NCBI GenBank assembly: GCA_026390735.1
Contig: JAPLFJ010000038.1
Coordinates: 5,062-69,061, forward strand
Origin: Ignavibacteriota bacterium
GTDB taxonomy: Bacteria > Bacteroidota > Ignavibacteria > Tepidaquicellales > Tepidaquicellaceae
Length of the DNA: 64,000 bases
Direction of reading: 5' to 3'
Of the stretch, positions 17,809 to 31,439 are shown in pieces; within the stretch, counting starts at the first letter, position 1, and each line of letters begins with the position of its first letter. The notes beneath the pieces were generated by a model. It was given only the letters and a program-made list of their open reading frames with translations. It was not told the DNA's origin and made no database searches. Both the position numbers and the translations under genes were made by a program.

Positions 17809-18951
17809 ATGGATTTCAATTTTACGGAAGAACAGATTCAAATCAGAGATGCCGCAAGAGACTTTGCTGAAAATGAAATTGCACCATCTGCTGTTGAAAG
17901 AGATATTAATGCAACATTCCCTGCTGAAATAGTAAAACAGTTAGGTGAAATGGGTTTTATGGGAATGATGGTTTCGCCTGAATGGGGAGGTGCAGGGCTC
18001 GATACTGTAAGTTACGTACTTGCGATGGAGGAAATATCAAAAGTTGACGCATCAGTCGGTGTTATTATGTCAGTAAACAATTCACTCGTTTGTTTTGGTC
18101 TGGAAAAATGGGGTACAAACGAACAGAAAGAAAAGTATTTACGTCCGCTTGCCACAGGACAAAAACTCGGAGCATTCTGCCTCTCAGAACCTGAAGCAGG
18201 AAGCGATGCAACGAATCAAAAGACTTTAGCCGATAAAGACGGCGACTTTTACGTTTTAAACGGAATGAAGAACTGGATTACAAACGGTACTTCAGCTGAC
18301 TATTATTTAGTTCAGGCACAGACAGATAAATCTAAAGGATATAAAGGAATTACAACATTTATAGTAGAGAAAACTTTCCCCGGTGTTGAACTTGGAAAGA
18401 AAGAAGATAAACTCGGTATCAGGAGTTCAGATACATGTACGGTTGGTTTAAATAACGTAAGGGTACCTAAAGAAAACATTCTTGGAGAAGAAGGTCTTGG
18501 CTTTAAGATTGCAATGGAAACTCTCAATGGCGGCAGAATTGGAATTGCATCACAGGCATTAGGAATTGCATCAGCTTCACTCGATGCATCAATAAAATAC
18601 TCAAAAGAAAGAAAAGCATTCGACGAACCTATCTGCAACTTACAGGCAATTCAATTCAAACTTGCAGATATGGCAGTTAACGTTGAGACTGCAAGACTGC
18701 TTATTGTTCAGTCTGCTTTAAAGAAAGACGCACACGAAAAGTACGCAAAGGAAGCTGCACAGGGAAAACTTTATGCAAGCCGTGTTGCAGTTCACAACGC
18801 ACTCGAGGCAATTCAGATTCACGGCGGATATGGATACGTGAGAGAATACCTTGTAGAAAGATATTTACGCGATGCAAAGATTACTGAAATTTATGAAGGA
18901 ACGAGTGAAATACAAAAGATAGTTATTGCTCGAGAGTTATTAAGAGATTAA
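17809..18951 (+). CDS. Acyl-CoA dehydrogenase (short/butyryl-chain type)
   Basis: 380 aa. CLSEPEAGSD, GGYGYVREY and IYEGTSEIQ signatures. Confidence 0.9.
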   Translation: MDFNFTEEQIQIRDAARDFAENEIAPSAVERDINATFPAEIVKQLGEMGFMGMMVSPEWGGAGLDTVSYVLAMEEISKVDASVGVIMSVNNSLVCFGLEKWGTNEQKEKYLRPLATGQKLGAFCLSEPEAGSDATNQKTLADKDGDFYVLNGMKNWITNGTSADYYLVQAQTDKSKGYKGITTFIVEKTFPGVELGKKEDKLGIRSSDTCTVGLNNVRVPKENILGEEGLGFKIAMETLNGGRIGIASQALGIASASLDASIKYSKERKAFDEPICNLQAIQFKLADMAVNVETARLLIVQSALKKDAHEKYAKEAAQGKLYASRVAVHNALEAIQIHGGYGYVREYLVERYLRDAKITEIYEGTSEIQKIVIARELLRD

Positions 18952-23534: not shown

Positions 23535-23567
23535 AAAAGCCCGTTATTATAAATAACGGGCTTTTTT
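23535..23567 (+). terminator. Rho-independent terminator
   Basis: aaaagcccgttat-tataa-ataacgggctttttt. Confidence 0.85.
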
Positions 23568-23589
23568 AATTTTTGTCTTTTTCTAATCT

Positions 23590-23616
23590 GTCTTTCCAGC
23601 GAAAGCTGGAATCCAG
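23590..23616. repeat. 27-nt hairpin repeat, copy A (left border of AT-rich block)
   Basis: gtctttccagcgaaagctggaatccag. 24/27 identical to the reverse complement of 29510-29536. Two of the three differences are compensatory within the stem. Confidence 0.85.
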
Positions 23617-23627
23617 ATTGTATATTT

Positions 23628-25658
23628 TTACCTAGCTATTGTATAAGACATTAATTCTTTTTCAGTTTCAAAATTAGATTGAGTAATAGCCGACCTAACT
23701 AAAACCAAACCAATATCGGGAGCATAATATTCTTTATAATAATCTTTACCAATGACCAAACAATTATAAAAAGTCCCCGCACTAGTAATTACTCTTTCTT
23801 CATATCCTAAAAATCTTAATTGAAAGCCATAGACTATCCATTTAGTAAGACCGTCCAAAGGAAAGGCAATTTTAGTATAAGAATATTCACCTATCATTTT
23901 ATTGTAACCTTTATAAATTAATTTGTTGTTATCTAATAAATAAGTCCCACTTTCTTTTAAATATACTTGATTTACTTGATAAGCGGAATAATTAATATAA
24001 TAATTTATTAAGACTTTTGCATAATTATTTCCATCATCCTCCCCAAAGACGTCTTCTAAATACGAAGCAGAATTATTTACTTGCCAATATAATAATTTAC
24101 TCCCTATCTTATGAGAAGGAAAATATTTATTGATAATCCGCAAATCATCATCTGACAACTTATATGAAAGTGTTTTAAGTCTTTCTAAGTTAGTTTTGTA
24201 TAATTCTTTTGGTTCAATTTCATATGCTTTTTCATAATATTCATTAGCCTTTTCATAATTCTTTTGTTTATCATAAATAACCCCGATATTATTGTAGGCA
24301 ATACTTGAACTTGGATTTATTCTTATACATTCAAGATAATAATGCAAAGCTTCTTCAACATTCCCGATTTTATCATAGCAATATGCAGTCCGAAATGTAA
24401 TTTTTAAATCTATTACATTATAATCTTTTTCTAATTTTAAATATTCTAAAAGTGCTTTATCGAATGATTTCGATTCATAATACTCGTCTGCATTATCAGA
24501 AATTTTCTCAATTTCTTTCTTTATCTTTAAATCTTCTTGATCTTTAACATAATTTTTTTCCCTATCACTATTAATAATATTATTATCATAAATATTAAAA
24601 CTATATAAATTGTCCGTTAATATATAACAATTGCCATTTGATTGAACTTCTACCGAACGTATATAATCTCCTATAATCAAATCAATCGATTCATATGATT
24701 TACCTCCATCTAATGTTCTGAATAAAAGATTCTCATTTAACCAAATTAACCCAACATCTTTATTAATAAATTTAAATTTTACATTAAAATTATTGTTAAG
24801 CTCTTTAATAGGAATCCAACCAGACCCGCCGTTAGTTGTTTTTAACAAATAACCTTTAAATTCTTCTCCATTAATTATTTTTGTGCAATAAACATATCCA
24901 TTACTCTGATCCAAAAATTGAGGTTCATAAATATCTTGATATTCTTTTAAACCGTTTGCTCTTTCCCAGCTTTCTCCACCATCTTTTGTTTTAAACCAAA
25001 AGACATTACTATAGTTACTGGATTTAAATCTACCTCTGGCTTCTTCAACATTTAATCTTCCATAGCAAAATCCATTATAACTATCTAAGAAATATATTCT
25101 ACAATCGTTTGAAGCAAATTCATCCTTTTTCTTAATCTTTAAAATATTATTAAAATTGAAGAAAAATTGAGAATCCCAATTTCTTCCATAGTCCTTTGAT
25201 TTGTAGATAATATAGTCATCATAATTATTATCCTCAAAATCTATTTTCTTTATTTCGTTACTAAATTTTTCTGGAAACATATATTCGGCCAACCCTTCAG
25301 CCATTTTCCATGATATTCCTCCATCAAAGGACCATAAATAAACATCTCCAACACCATATTCATGGATTAATGCTATGATATTGTCTTTTATGAATAATCG
25401 ATGAAAAATATTCTCTTTGCCATATAATATCTTTATCTCTGAGTAAGTTACGAAATTATCAGAAGATTTAAATAGTCTTGATTTATTAAGACTATCATCT
25501 TCGATTAATAAAAAGCACAGACTATTATTTGATACTTTAATATCTAAGAAACTATCGCTATAAACTGGAATCGGGAGATTAATTGTTCTAATGTTTTGTC
25601 CAAAAGATACTTGACTAATAAACAGCATAACTAATACATAAATCGTTTCTTTCTTCAT
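23628..25658 (-). CDS. Secreted BNR-like beta-propeller + TPR + C-terminal beta-rich domain protein
   Basis: Signal peptide MKKETIYVLVMLFISQVSFGQ (internal Met preferred over track start 25691). Blades SFDGGISW, SKDYGRNW, TKDGGESW, TTNGGSGW and TLDGGKSY. TPR-like segment ALHYYLECIRINPSSSIAYNNIGVIYDKQKNYEKANEYYEKAYEIEP. Confidence 0.7.
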   Translation of the reverse strand: MKKETIYVLVMLFISQVSFGQNIRTINLPIPVYSDSFLDIKVSNNSLCFLLIEDDSLNKSRLFKSSDNFVTYSEIKILYGKENIFHRLFIKDNIIALIHEYGVGDVYLWSFDGGISWKMAEGLAEYMFPEKFSNEIKKIDFEDNNYDDYIIYKSKDYGRNWDSQFFFNFNNILKIKKKDEFASNDCRIYFLDSYNGFCYGRLNVEEARGRFKSSNYSNVFWFKTKDGGESWERANGLKEYQDIYEPQFLDQSNGYVYCTKIINGEEFKGYLLKTTNGGSGWIPIKELNNNFNVKFKFINKDVGLIWLNENLLFRTLDGGKSYESIDLIIGDYIRSVEVQSNGNCYILTDNLYSFNIYDNNIINSDREKNYVKDQEDLKIKKEIEKISDNADEYYESKSFDKALLEYLKLEKDYNVIDLKITFRTAYCYDKIGNVEEALHYYLECIRINPSSSIAYNNIGVIYDKQKNYEKANEYYEKAYEIEPKELYKTNLERLKTLSYKLSDDDLRIINKYFPSHKIGSKLLYWQVNNSASYLEDVFGEDDGNNYAKVLINYYINYSAYQVNQVYLKESGTYLLDNNKLIYKGYNKMIGEYSYTKIAFPLDGLTKWIVYGFQLRFLGYEERVITSAGTFYNCLVIGKDYYKEYYAPDIGLVLVRSAITQSNFETEKELMSYTIAR

Positions 25659-25712
25659 AAGATTATAATATAAATGAGTAAAATTATTCAATAATTCATA
25701 TTTTATTATTAA

Positions 25713-26108
25713 TTAATTGTCATTCAAATTGGATTCTTTAAAACTATTATTTAATTCCCATTCACAGTTTTTATCAACTGGATCATATTTATCTAGCCCT
25801 CTATTATATATTTCGTCAAATACCTCTTCTAAATTAATATGTCGTTCAAAACTAACCCGATAAAGTGTTGCAGGGTTAATTTTGAAATTATAATTTATTG
25901 TTGGTACATATTCCCAAACATCCCCTTTTTGTTCTTTTTCGATATAAACACTTATAGGATTATTATCAAACTGACCCTTAAGAAATATAGAGAAATAATC
26001 GGCATCATTTATTCTTATGTCAAAACGTATTTTACCTATTTTGTCGGAATATTTCTTGGCAAGATAATCTAAATCTAGTCTTTCAATTGAATTCATTTCT
26101 TTGTTCAA
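25713..26108 (-). CDS. Hypothetical protein (131 aa), no motif recognised
   Basis: Long ORF co-oriented with and closely spaced to its neighbours. Very AT-rich. Confidence 0.5.
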   Translation of the reverse strand: MNKEMNSIERLDLDYLAKKYSDKIGKIRFDIRINDADYFSIFLKGQFDNNPISVYIEKEQKGDVWEYVPTINYNFKINPATLYRVSFERHINLEEVFDEIYNRGLDKYDPVDKNCEWELNNSFKESNLNDN

Positions 26109-26161
26109 ATAGTTTGTATTAATTATTCTATTAGTTATTTAACTAAAATCCACAGAAAACA

Positions 26162-27619
26162 TTAATGCTTATACTGTTCTGCTCTAAGCAGTGAAGCAAC
26201 TGTTATTGGTACGATTTCTATTTCGCCGTCTTTATCAAGTCTGCGGATTTCCGTCATTGCATCTTTTGTGAAGTCGAACGAAACGAAGTATCCTTTTATT
26301 CTTCCGTCTCTGCGAATTGCTGTTTGAAATGAATCTATGTCTGGTCTCCCGACTTTATCCATTTGCTTCACCTGAACAGGATAGTATTTGTCTGTATCGC
26401 CGAATAAATCCTTTTCTTCTTTCTTCTTCTTTTCAAGTTCTACGGGATAAAGCTTTCCGTCTATACCAAAGTCACCGGATTTAATTTTATTCGGAATGCC
26501 GGACATATTTGTAAGTTGTCCAAGAGCGATGACGGCCCAGTTCTGAAATTCAAAATGCGGAAGGATTCGAAGGTCTTCTTCAGTTTTCGGAAGATCATCC
26601 ACCCAAAAATCTGTTCCCTCACGAAGTTTATACAATTCATAAAGTCTTTGTCCCATCACACGGCAGGCAGTTGGGGAAATATCCACTCCAATCCATTTAC
26701 GATTTAGTCTTTGAGCGGCAACGAGAGTTGTTCCGCATCCGCAAAAAGCATCAAGAACGACATCACCTTTGTTAGAACTTGCATTTATAATTCTTTCCAT
26801 TAATGCAATTGGTTTTTGTGTAGGATAGCCAAGTCGTTCTTTGGCGGACGGACTAAGAGATTCAATGTCATCCCATAATGTTTGTATTGAAACTCCTTTC
26901 CCATCTTCAAGATATAGTTTTCTTTGCGGAACCGTTCCCGGCTTCGTTTGAACTACTAAACCGTCCTCAATTAATTTATTCATTTTCTCTTTTGAATATC
27001 TCCAATATTTCGATACACCTAATACTTCATAAAAAGGATTGCCTTTCGAACTTCCACCAGGACCAATCATGCTTATAAGTCTATATCTGCGACCATCACT
27101 TTCTTTATATTTATAAAAATTATCGAGATATTCAGAAGTGTACTCTTTAAACATTGGGTTAAATGTATAATCTGTCGTTTTTGTATAAAAGAATATATTA
27201 TCAATATTTGGGCTCCATAATTTACTGCCTTGTCCAAAATTACCTTTTACGGTATTTGCTCTCTTCCAAATTATTTCATTCCTAAAATAATTAAACCCAA
27301 ATATCTCATCAAGCATAATCTTAACGTAATGCGAGGCGTGCCAGTCGCAATGATAATAAAAACTTCCAGTCTTTTTAAGCACACGATAAATCTCACTTAC
27401 TCTCGGTCGCATATAATTAATGTATTCCTGAGCATCGCCAAACCTGTCATTGAAAGCTCTTTTCTCCTGCACGTCTCCCCAGAACACTTCATAATTCCTG
27501 TTGGAATTAAAAGGAGGGTCAATATAGCAAAGGTCAATACTCTCATCGGGCAAATCTTTTAACATCTTGATGTTATCCCCGCAATAAATCGTCTGTGTCT
27601 TTAATTGGTATGAGGTCAT
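26162..27619 (-). CDS. Beta-class N6A/N4C DNA methyltransferase fused to a C-terminal Mrr-type PD-(D/E)xK restriction-endonuclease-like domain
   Basis: Motif IV IDPPFNSN lies near the N-terminus and motif I VLDAFCGCGTTLVAAQRLNRKWIGVDISP comes later (order IV->I, beta class, PF01555-like). The C-terminal approx 150 aa read FEFQNWAVIALG...GDFGIDGKL...YPVQVKQ...KGYFVSFDFTKDA, matching the Mrr_cat pattern (D...QxK). Confidence 0.85.
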   Translation of the reverse strand: MTSYQLKTQTIYCGDNIKMLKDLPDESIDLCYIDPPFNSNRNYEVFWGDVQEKRAFNDRFGDAQEYINYMRPRVSEIYRVLKKTGSFYYHCDWHASHYVKIMLDEIFGFNYFRNEIIWKRANTVKGNFGQGSKLWSPNIDNIFFYTKTTDYTFNPMFKEYTSEYLDNFYKYKESDGRRYRLISMIGPGGSSKGNPFYEVLGVSKYWRYSKEKMNKLIEDGLVVQTKPGTVPQRKLYLEDGKGVSIQTLWDDIESLSPSAKERLGYPTQKPIALMERIINASSNKGDVVLDAFCGCGTTLVAAQRLNRKWIGVDISPTACRVMGQRLYELYKLREGTDFWVDDLPKTEEDLRILPHFEFQNWAVIALGQLTNMSGIPNKIKSGDFGIDGKLYPVELEKKKKEEKDLFGDTDKYYPVQVKQMDKVGRPDIDSFQTAIRRDGRIKGYFVSFDFTKDAMTEIRRLDKDGEIEIVPITVASLLRAEQYKH

Positions 27620-28431
27620 GATACGAAATCGCTTAATTTTAATATTTCTAATTCTTTATAAAAATTATGTTTGTTCTTAATTTGTAAAATTTGATTAGTC
27701 ATATCTTTTTCCAAGAAAACTGAATCAACATAGGGAAAAGCACTTGAAATATAAACATCATTAACATCCGAAGGCTTAGGCTTTCTATGTTTCAAATAGA
27801 ATTTGTAAAATCTAATCAATGTCATAGATTTTAAAGATAAAAACTTATCATAATTTAATGGTTCTCTTAATTTAATCTTATTATCAACAAATTCTTTATA
27901 AATGCCAAATAATATATTATGCATTTCGGAAGTTAGCCAATTATTAATATATCGTTTTTCCAAGAATATATTTTCACTTGGGTAACTATTTGATTTCTTT
28001 ACCATAGCATTGAGCACAAATGGTTTAAGATCTCTATTCCTTTTGAAATTTTCTGAAATAATATTTTGAGTGAATATATCTTTAAATTCCTTATAATAAT
28101 CAGCACCTTTAAGCATATTTACGAAAATTAGTATTGGATCAATTTTATAATTATCGTTTTCATAATTATTAATTTCTTCATCTAATAACATTTCATCGGT
28201 TTTTAATAATATTGTAGGCATAATACTGGTATAACTTATGAATTCTTCGAATATATCTTTACAAATTTCCATTTCCTCAATATTCTTAATCGAATAACAG
28301 AATAATCTCTGCTCTTGTAGGAACTTTGGAACAATAAACGAACCTAATTCCTCTTTGAACTTCAAAAGTTCGCTAATAATACAAGTGTCAACTAAACATA
28401 ACTTATAATATAATCCGCCTAATTCAATCAA
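27616..28431 (-). CDS. Hypothetical protein, tentative PIN-like nuclease with large insert
   Basis: 271 aa. N-terminal CLVDTCIISELL and C-terminal DVNDVYISSAFPYVDSVFLEKD resemble the first and last acidic strands of PIN domains. Stop overlaps the MTase start (ATGA at 27616-27619). Confidence 0.4.
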   Translation of the reverse strand: MIELGGLYYKLCLVDTCIISELLKFKEELGSFIVPKFLQEQRLFCYSIKNIEEMEICKDIFEEFISYTSIMPTILLKTDEMLLDEEINNYENDNYKIDPILIFVNMLKGADYYKEFKDIFTQNIISENFKRNRDLKPFVLNAMVKKSNSYPSENIFLEKRYINNWLTSEMHNILFGIYKEFVDNKIKLREPLNYDKFLSLKSMTLIRFYKFYLKHRKPKPSDVNDVYISSAFPYVDSVFLEKDMTNQILQIKNKHNFYKELEILKLSDFVS

Positions 28432-28449
28432 TTTTTATAATAGCCATAT

Positions 28450-29043
28450 TTAATTAAAATCATCATTTTGCTCTGCGTAATCATTGTCTTCTTTATATTC
28501 CTCAACTAACTGAATTGTAAATTCAACAAGGACTTGTCTTTCATAATCAGTCAAGTATTGTATAAGTTTTTCAAGTTTCTCAATACTTGTATTTCCAATA
28601 AGATTTTCGTCATTGTCTTCCAAGTTTTCACTATTATATGGCGCCGAAGGAATATATTCTATTAGTTGAAATAAATCTTCAATAGTATCAGCACCAATAA
28701 AATCTCTTATCATTTCTTGAATAATTGGTAATTGATCAATTCTATCATCCGTATCTTTTCTTTTAAACTTTCTTCTTGCATGCTTTGGGATTGTTCCTTC
28801 CAAAGTATTTACTTCTGGCTCTATTAATTTATATTCTTCTTCTTTAGGTGATACTTCATCTATAGGCAATTTATCTGCACTCGGTAATTCCTCTTTAGGA
28901 ATCTCAACTTCCTTCCTTAATACCTCTATTGGTAATTCTTCTTCCAATATAAGATTTGAATATTCTAGTTTCTTTCGCTTTATGTATTTAGCAAAACCAA
29001 TAAAGCCCATTGATAGTACTAATATTGCAAATAACTTTTTCAT
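28450..29043 (-). CDS. Membrane-anchored, strongly acidic protein (single N-terminal TM)
   Basis: 197 aa. MKKLFAILVLSMGFIGFA followed by KYIKRKK, then E/D/P-rich sequence with EELP-type repeats. Confidence 0.55.
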   Translation of the reverse strand: MKKLFAILVLSMGFIGFAKYIKRKKLEYSNLILEEELPIEVLRKEVEIPKEELPSADKLPIDEVSPKEEEYKLIEPEVNTLEGTIPKHARRKFKRKDTDDRIDQLPIIQEMIRDFIGADTIEDLFQLIEYIPSAPYNSENLEDNDENLIGNTSIEKLEKLIQYLTDYERQVLVEFTIQLVEEYKEDNDYAEQNDDFN

Positions 29044-29429
29044 AATTGTTTTGTTAAATGTAATAATATTTGTTCAAATAGTGAGTCAAGTGATGGTTTA
29101 AACGTACTTGATTTAGAAAACTCAGGATTTGTTTCGATCAAATTATTTGCGAATCTAATACGCATAATATCGCCTATTGATTTTGAAATTGATTCTATTT
29201 TATTTACAGGGAAATAGAAAGTCTCAAAGTGTTCGTTTTCAAAAACAAAGTAGATTAATAAATTATTTTCGAAGTACAATAATTTATTACTTTTTACTTC
29301 CTTATATGCATGTTCAAAATAATAATCTTTATTTCCTTTTAAATGATTCGTTAGTTCAGTATGAACATCAACATTTAGTAAATGTTTAGATGTTCTACTT
29401 AATAAATCCCATATTTTATCTGCTTTCAT
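29040..29429 (-). CDS. Hypothetical protein (129 aa), first gene of the cassette
   Basis: Stop overlaps the next start (ATGA at 29040-29043). No motif recognised. Confidence 0.5.
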   Translation of the reverse strand: MKADKIWDLLSRTSKHLLNVDVHTELTNHLKGNKDYYFEHAYKEVKSNKLLYFENNLLIYFVFENEHFETFYFPVNKIESISKSIGDIMRIRFANNLIETNPEFSKSSTFKPSLDSLFEQILLHLTKQL

Positions 29430-29509
29430 TTTTGTATTCTTTAATTTATTACAAACTTATGAAATCAATTTCAGTTTTCATTATCATTTCGTGATAATTT
29501 TTAAAGACT

Positions 29510-29536
29510 CTGGATTCCCGCTTTCGCGGGAATGAC
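29510..29536. repeat. 27-nt hairpin repeat, copy B (right border of AT-rich block)
   Basis: ctggattcccgctttcgcgggaatgac, in inverted orientation relative to copy A. Fits ATTCCC-N8-GGGAAT. Confidence 0.85.
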
Positions 29537-29790: not shown

Positions 29791-29822
29791 TTAAATAAAA
29801 GCGCCCCGGGATCCGGGGCGCT
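29789..29822 (-). terminator. GC-rich rho-independent terminator of the FN3-domain gene
   Basis: gcgccccgg-atcc-ggggcgc stem. On the minus strand it is followed by ttttatttaaaag. Confidence 0.8.
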
Positions 29823-29878
29823 TAACTGAATTTGGTGGGTAAAAGTGTTTCTTGTTTTGTCAACCCACCCTATTTTGT

Positions 29879-30496
29879 TTATTGTACTCTGCTTGCGGCT
29901 TCACTCCAGGGTCCGTATCCGTTTCGGTTTGCCGCTCGAACGCGGAAGAAATACCGGACTCCTTTGATGATGTTATCATCTATGAAACTGATTTTTGATG
30001 TTGTTTTGAAATAGAATAATTGTGGAATGTTTGTCAGGTCTGTTGATACTAAACTTTGACCTTTCTGCCACTCGTATGAGTCTGCATTTTTATCCCTTGC
30101 TTTAATTCCGATTAAGAAACCTTCTGCATCGGAATCATCTTCGAGGACGACTGCAAGTACTTCGGTTGGCGGAGGAATTTTGCTTGGGTCTTTGCGGGGT
30201 TTCATTCCATATTCCGCAAGTTTATCAGGTTGGTTTGCATAGATTGCATATGCGAATGTTTCGCATTGGCTTAGCAAACTTTTTGATTCTGAATTCTGGA
30301 GAGATCCTGAATGGCGCGCAATTACAGAGGCAGACTCTGCGGCGTCGATTGCTTCGCCTTTTGTTGTTAAATCTGTGATAGAACTCTGAACATCGGTTGA
30401 TTTTACAGGTTCGCCTGTCCAGTCAGTTGGGTTTTTCTTCATTCCCTGCAGGAATGCGTTTAACCTGTTCAAGGTTTCGAGAATGTACTTTTTCAT
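29879..30496 (-). CDS. Cytoplasmic-looking protein with C-terminal fibronectin type III domain
   Basis: 205 aa. C-terminal ...GVRYFFRVRAANRNGYGPWSEAA is a classic FN3 F/G-strand pattern. No signal peptide. Strong SD (ggaagg) upstream. Markedly higher G+C than its surroundings. Confidence 0.7.
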   Translation of the reverse strand: MKKYILETLNRLNAFLQGMKKNPTDWTGEPVKSTDVQSSITDLTTKGEAIDAAESASVIARHSGSLQNSESKSLLSQCETFAYAIYANQPDKLAEYGMKPRKDPSKIPPPTEVLAVVLEDDSDAEGFLIGIKARDKNADSYEWQKGQSLVSTDLTNIPQLFYFKTTSKISFIDDNIIKGVRYFFRVRAANRNGYGPWSEAASRVQ

Positions 30497-30828
30497 TTTG
30501 TACCTTCCTTCTAAATTAGTTTTTAAAAAAGTTCTTTTAAAATTTACAGTTAAAATTATTCCGTTTAGAATATTTTAAGAGTAAAACTTATTTAGAAACA
30601 CTTGAAACCTTTGAATTCAGTTATAGTTTTTTGTAGTAATAACAAAATATTGTATTAATAATTAATTGTCAATATAAAAAGTTAACTGTTGTTATAATAA
30701 TTATTTATGAATATTCTAATGACAAATCTCAATAATAATAACATTATATTTTCCTAAAAAGACCAACAACATTTTTGTATTTTCCGTTAAAACCGCAAAT
30801 ACAGCGAGGAATCCACTTTATTTCCCAA

Positions 30829-31090
30829 AAATGTGCACATTTTTGGGAACATTTTGCACATTTTTGGGAACATTTTGTATATTGTTCGGAACATTTTGCA
30901 TATTGTTCGGAACATTTTACATATTCTAATTTACAATCGGCAAATTCTAATTTACATTTTGCACTTTCTAAATTACATTTTGCATAATTTTCGGAACATT
31001 TAGCACATTCTAATTTACATTTTGCATATTCTAAATTACATTTTGCACAATCCAAATTACATTTTGCATAATGTTATTTACAATTTAAGT
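30829..31090. repeat. Array of about 12 degenerate 21-bp tandem repeats (core cattttgcaYaWt...)
   Basis: Exact 21-nt register from 30850 to 31080 (30850, 30871, 30892, ... 31060), with partial units at both ends. ORFs are open on both strands, as expected for a simple repeat. Confidence 0.9.
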
Positions 31091-31119: not shown

Positions 31120-31153
31120 AATAAAAAAGCCGGTTTTACCAAATTACCGGCTT
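31120..31153 (-). terminator. Rho-independent terminator (minus strand)
   Basis: aagccggt-tttaccaaatt-accggctt. The minus strand reads stem then ttttttatt. Confidence 0.65.
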
Positions 31154-31439
31154 TCGCAATTTTTGCATATCAAATATTTGATTGGCATCTCAATTTGATG
31201 GATTAAAGTATTATATAATTATATAAGTATCAAGCAATAAATTTAGTAAGATATCGAAATCGGTATTTCGTATCATCGTTTATCCTGTGGAAACCATTGC
31301 GTGAGAATTTTATGTTTCGGTTTATCTTTATTGATTCTTCAACGTAAGAAAGAAACTTTGAGTATTTCATCGTCAATGGATTGAACTTCCCTATTAGTTG
31401 ATTACTTTTCTTTTAAAAAATATAAAACGGGAAGATTCT

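Follow-up and report, generated by a model that had tools for sequence, protein, structure and literature searches.

An AT-rich accessory gene block bracketed by dRS3-like hairpin repeats at a variable intergenic locus of an Ignavibacteriota genome

Introduction

Variable, AT-rich defence and surface genes lying in hot spots between core genes are common in bacteria. In Neisseria, minimal mobile elements (MMEs) are said to facilitate the horizontal exchange of gene cassettes (PMC2649163), and the repeat dRS3, defined as a 20-bp inverted repeat of the form ATTCCC-N8-GGGAAT, has been proposed as a recombinase site that promotes the exchange of adjacent genes and is the integration site of Nf phages (PMC1797815). 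Here, we analyzed a stretch of 64,000 nucleotides (the window) from an Ignavibacteriota bacterium (GenBank assembly GCA_026390735.1, contig JAPLFJ010000038.1, referred to as C63, positions 5062-69061), which is part of a 4.02-Mb genome of 69 contigs with 36.4% G+C. Between two converging sets of core genes, this window carries an AT-rich block of six genes that is bracketed by inward-facing copies of a 27-nt hairpin repeat, GTCATTCCNGCGAAAGCNGGAATCCAG. We conclude that the block is very probably an accessory cassette acquired at a variable hot spot.

The locus is similar to MMEs and defence islands in that whole-gene cassettes, often with restriction-modification (R-M) or other defence genes, differ between conserved genes, with no integrase, transposase or tRNA. 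It differs from MMEs in two respects: natural transformation and exchange through flank homology belong to MMEs and are not known from Ignavibacteria; and the inverted hairpin borders of this cassette are not in the MME definition. With regard to dRS3, the right hairpin copy contains ATTCCCGCGAAAGCGGGAAT, which fits ATTCCC-N8-GGGAAT, and the gonococcal pilE upstream region carries the 27-mer, together with an inverted partner, except for one base (PMC7593972). Relatives of the organism also show the inverted doublets (in genome G032) and the arrays with AT-rich spacers (13 copies in G006) that are familiar from dRS3 and the intergenic mosaic elements of Neisseria (NIMEs). On the other hand, the genome analyzed here has five copies of the repeat, whereas Neisseria, which belongs to a different phylum, has hundreds; the repeats bracket 5.9 kb of genes here and RS units of 50-150 bp there; and neither an Nf-type phage nor an associated recombinase turned up beside any copy. 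In the literature, we found no description of a dRS3-like repeat outside Neisseria.

Results

Layout and composition of the block

The block consists of six ORFs on the minus strand (Table 1), which encode, from left to right, a secreted BNR/TPR protein, a 131-aa orphan, a fusion of a DNA methyltransferase with an Mrr-type domain, a 271-aa protein, and two orphans of 197 and 129 aa, separated by 21, 53, -4, 18 and -4 bp. An original prediction, made from the letters of the window, had taken these genes for an inserted accessory island without mobility genes, co-oriented, closely spaced and free of internal terminators, and had proposed a composition profile and a comparison of synteny as checks. 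The layout agrees with this description, and the terminator scan yielded weak terminator-like matches within the block and strong ones outside it, at 23535-23565 and 29799-29823. The limits given there, 23590 and 29536, turned out to be the exact outer ends of the two hairpin repeats. As had also been stated, mobility genes are missing: no integrase or transposase domain was detected in the six proteins by Pfam, PADLOC, PHROGs and NCBIfam, and no tRNA was found in the window. The six genes are presumably transcribed as a single unit.

The G+C content of positions 23590-29536 is 29.1%, compared with 36.4% for the genome (z = -2.6), which places the block in the lowest 1.9% of the 7264 6-kb windows of the genome; by tetranucleotide distance from the genome, it ranks in the top 1.4%, so that both profiles deviate. 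The G+C values that had been counted by hand on single lines are all correct (13.3% at 24541, 25.0% at 28081 and 41.7% at 18001). Five of the six genes have 24.6-29.3% G+C and a G+C content at third codon positions (GC3) of 17-22%, compared with 37.4 +/- 4.0% and 35 +/- 6.7% for the long ORFs of the genome. The composition of the methyltransferase gene is host-like (37.6% G+C, GC3 32%), and the block is therefore a mosaic and not uniformly AT-rich; the predicted AT-richness holds for the block as a whole and fails for this gene. Equal or greater AT-richness was observed in at least eight other 6-kb regions of the genome, and the block is thus one among several such islands.

Insertion into a hypervariable locus

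The flanking gene sets, truA-DUF1028 and hisC-UPF0316, converge and consist of core genes whose synteny is kept in congeners. In the two closest relatives, G014 (95% identity in DUF1028) and G011, the DUF1028 and UPF0316 genes are about 1 kb apart. The order there is hisC, a 72-aa gene, UPF0316 and a 181-aa membrane-protein gene, the sole gene between UPF0316 and DUF1028, on which the series converges across a spacer of 0.16-0.39 kb. The comparison of synteny thus found DUF1028 and UPF0316-hisC adjacent and all six block genes absent from this site in these two genomes. In the genome under study (G000), the 181-aa gene is reduced to a remnant that is 70% identical (tblastn) to residues 123-178 of the G011 protein; since it is intact in the relatives and cut to 56 codons here, this genome represents the derived state. 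On the DUF1028 side, similarity with G011 and G014 stops at 23589/23590, and the terminator hairpin following DUF1028 is the last sequence in common with the G011 empty site. The non-ancestral DNA extends from about 23.57 to 31.26 kb, about 7.7 kb in all, and the end of the insert that had been predicted at about 29.5 kb is therefore not borne out.

In G012, both flanks are syntenic and a different, 17-kb insert lies between them, which encodes an MmeI-type enzyme, an Eco57I-type methylase, an HNH protein and GHKL ATPases. In G001 and G005, still other genes adjoin UPF0316. While the flanks are conserved in G012, G008, G011 and G014, the contents differ among G000, G012, G001, G005 and G011/G014, which amounts to at least five states within the genus; the locus is thus a genus-wide variable hot spot. 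No counterpart of the genes for the BNR/TPR, 271-aa, 129-aa, 197-aa and 131-aa proteins exists in 40-60 related genomes, six-frame searches of 60 related genomes revealed no homologue of the 129-, 197- and 131-aa proteins, and the methyltransferase was detected in two of 40 relatives, at other chromosomal places. The empty sites, the truncated 181-aa gene, the foreign composition and the sporadic distribution of the genes all favour the inserted accessory island that had been predicted. Of the features used to recognize genomic islands, deviant composition and absence from close relatives at the same site were found, and an integrase or transposase, a tRNA site and flanking direct repeats (the repeats are inverted) were not; of those that characterize MMEs and hot spots, the locus shows conserved flanks, differing cassettes and no mobility genes.

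With regard to the G012 hot spot itself (L013, G012:C2 378000-397900), its MmeI-type enzyme is of Type IIG, the GHKL ATPases are two in one protein, orphans are present besides the HNH and Eco57I-type genes, and about 8 kb of the content has 24-31% G+C.

Hairpin repeats at the borders

A search of the 4.0-Mb genome that allowed up to four mismatches found five copies of the hairpin repeat, two of which bracket the block. The chance of an adjacent, inward-facing pair no more than 6 kb apart among five copies is P = 0.0075. The left copy differs from the right one by an A-to-T change and a compensated stem pair, and both fold stably as single strands (left copy, -9 kcal/mol, z = -4.4); Rfam produced sub-threshold, terminator-like matches alone at these sites. 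The outer end of the left hairpin coincides with the junction to the G011 empty site. This empty site has a degenerate version of the repeat, GTCATTCAATTTACGGAAT; matches of this quality have a background rate of 7 per Mb. The block and the DUF1028 flank are joined on an independent Logan contig (100% identity over 11.9 kb), and the FN3-like gene beyond the block is joined to the right hairpin on a second one. Both of these contigs, which are from the same strain, break at the right hairpin, where they overlap by 31 nt. A population polymorphism was considered for these breaks and rejected: the overlap equals the word size of the assembler, and the breaks are thus explained by a repeat that other DNA in the sample also contains.

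Two of the three other copies in the genome are also located at G+C steps (G000 C56:87773-92194 and C58:14762), and one of these two separates an MmeI-like 913-aa gene from an AT-rich 509-aa orphan.

Distribution of the hairpin in the order and in other phyla

The hairpin motif was identified in 34 of 41 genomes of the order, and none was found in the reversed control. At the two stem positions left free by the search, 146 of 150 copies have Watson-Crick pairs (53 expected), with all four pair types present; this covariation indicates that the hairpin itself is under selection. Further examination of seven contiguous genomes, with control intergenic sites taken from the same loci, revealed that the G+C step between the 1-kb flanks is 0.060 at 39 hairpin sites and 0.032 at 113 other intergenic sites (P = 8e-5). 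Genes on the AT-rich side include GmrSD+HNH, an OLD-like ATPase-TOPRIM nuclease, a KAP NTPase, a RhuM/Fic protein and orphans. In addition, a perfect copy lies 55 bp 3' of a homologue of the 271-aa gene on a metagenome contig, at a G+C boundary.

The exact 27-mer was also detected in Proteobacteria, Chloroflexota, candidate-phyla-radiation lineages, Nitrospirae, Planctomycetota and Ignavibacteria. Across phyla, it mostly occurs as inverted doublets spanning 62-230 bp.

Other arrangements were observed as well. Arrays of up to 13 direct copies are present at L285 (G006:C3, about 229.5-231.6 kb) and at L277 and L272 (G026), with spacers that alternate between about 72 and 235 bp and have 11-37% G+C, a layout as in Neisseria NIME arrays. 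An inward pair exactly brackets a single small GIY-YIG gene of the COG2827 type at L043 (G001:C17 1334-1863), and the same bracketing was found in a gammaproteobacterial metagenome-assembled genome (MAG) at L205 829-1187. Another GIY-YIG gene of G001 lies directly 5' of UPF0316 (L035 254-637).

Methyltransferase-Mrr fusion

The fusion protein matches the Pfam family N6_N4_Mtase (PF01555) with an E-value of 1.9e-49 and 169 bits (cut-off 26.7) and the PADLOC model MTase_II, while its match to Mrr_cat (PF04471) is marginal (22.4 bits, cut-off 21). The best PDB matches of the methyltransferase are CcrM, MboIIA and RsrI. The motif DPPF begins at residue 34 and FCGCG at residue 292, so that motif IV precedes motif I; these two motifs, as well as GDxG[ILV]DG and [IV]QVKQ, are invariant in all 77 fusion sequences, and the central region varies. 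We take the GxD...QxK residues to be the catalytic residues of an Mrr-type nuclease. Full-length relatives were found at at least 574 loci in Acidobacteriota, Planctomycetota, Verrucomicrobiota, candidate-phyla-radiation lineages and others. The only gene coupled to the fusion encodes the 271-aa protein, which has no match to an endonuclease family. Domain searches agree with the earlier view of the block as a DNA-modification/nuclease cassette mixed with a secreted BNR-TPR protein.

As in Type IIG/IIC and Mrr (Type IV) enzymes, a methyltransferase and a PD-(D/E)xK nuclease are combined in one polypeptide, with a variable central target-recognition region. MmeI/BcgI-type single-chain enzymes typically have gamma-class methylases. 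In contrast, the fusion methylase is predicted from its sequence to be of the beta class (N6_N4_Mtase, DPPF), and its putative nuclease domain is of the Mrr D...QxK type and C-terminal.

Elsewhere in the genome, a stand-alone fragment (G000 C51:8927-9145) is 79% identical to residues 413-485 of the fusion, with which the Mrr-like domain ends, and represents a relic of a further fusion copy.

The 271-aa protein family

An exhaustive HMMER search assigned 340 representative clusters to the family of the 271-aa protein, for which there is no Pfam model. Residues D15, E53, E86 and D225 are invariant in 60 sequences. The Pfam PIN model matches one of these 60 members (E = 0.023), and VapC/Fcf1 matches are sub-threshold (E 0.13-2.3). 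A profile search of the PDB with the family gave nothing significant; the top match, Rheb, looks spurious, being based on a common LVDT-type motif. An AlphaFold model built from five sequences has a predicted local distance difference test (pLDDT) score of 42 and is unusable. In two of three other contexts, relatives of this gene lie 5' of R-M genes, and on an unrelated contig (L128) the 271-aa gene and the fusion recur with a 4-nt overlap, after another 205-aa gene.

Two further contexts were noted. At L129 (GCA_041859005.1, JBHELA010000134.1, 127-3200), the 271-aa gene is present at 86% identity and the ends of the fusion gene are kept: the first 46 and last 26 codons are retained, and genes for an MvaI/BcnI-type endonuclease and a different methylase take the place of the middle. 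This arrangement shows a cassette replacement, an R-M swap inside conserved ends. At L127 (2811-3602), a family member follows a gene for a 263-aa protein with a Dev_Cell_Death (DCD, PF10539) domain according to precomputed Pfam annotation, a domain that is unusual for bacteria.

Other genes of the block and the DNA beyond the right hairpin

For the BNR/TPR protein, the likely start is the ATG at 25658, which gives 676 aa with a signal peptide. Its Pfam matches are TPR_1/2/8 and, weakly, PSII_BNR; no type-IX secretion tail was found on it. The gene has 26.4% G+C, and the protein has one full-length relative, with 53% identity, in an unrelated context. Five of the six block proteins have no match in PADLOC, PHROGs and NCBIfam.

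Upstream of the first block gene, the palindrome ATTATCACGAAATGATAAT is followed by a promoter-like element, TAAGTTTG. An 18/19 match to this palindrome occupies the equivalent position in an island of G006 (L038 12309-12327). The form ATTATCA-N5-TGATAAT has seven copies in the genome, in AT-rich intergenic DNA 5' of promoter-like TAnnTTTG elements; the others are at C1:142360, C29:99319, C30:4816, C39:11395, C42:55893 and C55:16049 of G000. It is possibly the operator of a host regulator.

The FN3-like gene lies inside the insert, outside the hairpin-bounded block, and is absent from the G011/G014 empty sites. Its AlphaFold model has a pLDDT of 92 and structural matches to the FN3 fold; the fold search matched generic FN3 domains and gave no informative whole-chain match. 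In G006, a member of this family heads the island that carries a methyltransferase homologue.

The FN3-like family comprises G+C-rich genes for proteins of 204-211 aa with a helical hairpin, an FN3 domain and no signal peptide (window 29879-30496; L038 12535-13161; L128 115-732; L133 253-888). Its members repeatedly lie just 5' of runs of AT-rich genes in the same orientation that encode orphan, defence or secreted proteins, and are mostly found on very short metagenome contigs, as if beside variable DNA that is hard to assemble. The 21-bp array, which lies between the FN3-like gene and the 181-aa remnant, contains sub-families, and one Logan contig ends within it. A 103-aa Cys/Lys-rich ORF at 30744-31055 was rejected as a gene: with its repetitive translation, it is the translated tandem array.

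Table 1. Features of the insert and its borders (positions in the window)
Feature	Position	Strand	Evidence
Bidirectional terminator hairpin after the core DUF1028 gene	23535..23565		Terminator scan
Left hairpin repeat, GTCTTTCCAGCGAAAGCTGGAATCCAG, pointing into the block	23590..23616	+	Genome motif search, folding
Secreted BNR (Ycf48-like propeller) and TPR protein, ORF of 687 aa	23628..25691	-	Pfam
131-aa orphan	25713..26108	-	No family match, no homologue in 60 relatives
Single-chain beta-class N6/N4 methyltransferase with C-terminal Mrr-type PD-(D/E)xK nuclease domain, 485 aa	26162..27619	-	Pfam, PADLOC
271-aa candidate PIN-like nuclease; stop overlaps the methyltransferase start by 4 nt	27616..28431	-	HMMER
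197-aa orphan, N-terminal transmembrane helix, acidic tail	28450..29043	-	Sequence, no family match
129-aa orphan, first gene of the block	29040..29429	-	No family match
Palindrome ATTATCACGAAATGATAAT, possible operator, 5' of the first gene	29480..29498		Seven genome copies
Right hairpin repeat, GTCATTCCCGCGAAAGCGGGAATCCAG, pointing into the block	29510..29536	-	Genome motif search, folding
Strong G+C-rich terminator of the FN3-like gene; 11-bp stem, 9 G-C pairs, T tail	29799..29823	-	Terminator scan
FN3-like 205-aa protein, N-terminal helical hairpin and C-terminal FN3, 42.7% G+C	29879..30496	-	AlphaFold
21-bp tandem repeat array, about 12 copies	30834..31086		Tandem Repeats Finder (TRF)
Terminator-like hairpin after the 181-aa gene stump	31126..31154	-	Sequence, G011 alignment, weak terminator-type Rfam match
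Remnant of the 181-aa membrane-protein gene, last 56 codons; right limit of the rearranged region	31263..31430	-	tblastn, alignment

Discussion

The observations at this locus show that the block was very probably acquired horizontally, into a hypervariable intergenic hot spot between the converging truA-DUF1028 and hisC-UPF0316 sets, at a target that would already have held an earlier insert, the FN3-like gene and the 21-bp array. The original prediction had called the acquisition mechanism unclear. Given the inverted hairpins at the borders of the block and the genus-wide hot spot around it, this no longer fully applies. The block may have entered, or been exchanged, as a discrete module by recombination, either at the hairpins, by means of an enzyme provided in trans, or between homologous sequences of the conserved flanks following DNA uptake. 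The core of its mosaic cargo, the fusion with its translationally coupled 271-aa partner, would act as an R-M-like defence unit, in which the methyltransferase would mark host DNA and the nuclease domain would cut DNA whose modification state is wrong; this pair would be accompanied by three small proteins specific to the lineage and by the secreted BNR/TPR protein. We consider the account as a whole, including the recombination-based entry and the defence-type core, to be likely. A direct involvement of the hairpins in the insertion is a closer call, which we see as nearly balanced and leaning slightly to the negative.

Several observations weigh against parts of this account. The right hairpin is internal to the insert, with 1.7 kb more of non-ancestral DNA beyond it, and a single hairpin-to-hairpin event therefore cannot explain everything. 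No target-site duplication was found at the two hairpins (the outside bases, TAATC on the left and AAGGG on the right, are not duplicated), and none of the hairpin copies of this genome has a transposase, IS110-type, Y1 or GIY-YIG gene next to it. The G006 island, whose methyltransferase is 78% identical, has no hairpins. In other phyla, inward-facing pairs of the 27-mer also bracket core genes such as smc, and a pair alone thus does not define a mobile unit. With regard to the defence role, no gene is conserved beside the fusion in 80 loci, so that the fusion is a self-contained, horizontally mobile gene; it could be a methylase that stands alone, with a nuclease-like domain that is regulatory or inactive. 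Its 271-aa partner is a candidate PIN-like nuclease on account of invariant acidic residues and sub-threshold matches.

It is conceivable, though in our opinion unlikely, that the hairpins are incidental, either as REP/NIME-like repeats or as elements that stabilize or terminate RNA, and that the island is exchanged purely by homologous recombination in its flanks, like a Neisseria MME. The variable locus with flanks conserved across the genus, the extension of the insert past the right hairpin, the pan-bacterial occurrence of the repeat, mostly in short intergenic doublets or arrays, and the hairpin-free island of G006 would all fit such a scenario. It does not account for the close inward pair among so few copies, the left junction at a hairpin end, or the enrichment at G+C steps, which holds even in comparison with other intergenic sites.

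We regard as improbable that the block is a non-autonomous transposable cassette, that is, a mobile insertion cassette (MIC) or a cargo-bearing miniature inverted-repeat transposable element (MITE), with the hairpins as terminal inverted repeats and the 5.9 kb moved whole. The transposase or nuclease would then be encoded elsewhere and could be of the GIY-YIG, IS110/Piv-like or Y1 type; the genome does encode one IS110-type and several Y1 transposases. Like MICs, MITEs and REPINs, the block has inverted terminal repeats and passenger genes, lacks a transposase, and has counterparts elsewhere in short versions of the repeat pair. Its repeats face inward exactly at the compositional edges, inverted pairs bracket MITE/REPIN-like units of 60-230 bp in other genomes, and single GIY-YIG genes are enclosed in G001 and L205. 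However, it differs from these elements in having no target-site duplication, no cognate autonomous element and no second copy, and in that its repeat is a covarying hairpin. No second copy of the block was found even among 5.8 billion proteins, nor a full-length element that combines these ends with a transposase, and no candidate enzyme gene adjoins the hairpins in this genome. The bracketing of core genes in other phyla and the different histories of the genes inside the block also argue against a cassette moved whole.

A bolder extension, to which we give even less credence, is that the hairpin is the recognition site of a widespread trans-acting recombination system that inserts and swaps gene cassettes, especially defence genes, at intergenic sites marked by the hairpin; the block would be a large, cargo-bearing example. 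An ancestral block that was lost in G011/G014, or a chimeric join in a MAG, is hardly credible: the assembly does have 69 contigs, and contigs of several relatives end near the locus, but the 181-aa gene, which the relatives have in full, is truncated here, none of the 60 relatives has any of five of the genes, the composition is foreign, and Logan contigs confirm the joins on both sides (DUF1028 flank; FN3-like gene to right hairpin). An integron cassette array was rejected, since the gaps of -4 to 53 bp are too small for attC and no integron integrase domain is present.

The island itself is an ordinary accessory or defence cassette of a hot spot, and the unusual part is its borders. A repeat known from Neisseria, whose role in gene exchange has been hypothesised since 2000-2007, is found here in a distant phylum, bracketing a whole cassette, and across the order there is a statistical association between the hairpin and the edges of imported defence genes. 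If this link is causal, the repeat would provide a sequence handle for cassette junctions in metagenomes and a testable system for islands that move without mobility genes of their own. In addition, the cargo supplies two widespread, uncharacterised families for the study of phage defence, the methyltransferase-Mrr fusion and the family of its 271-aa partner.

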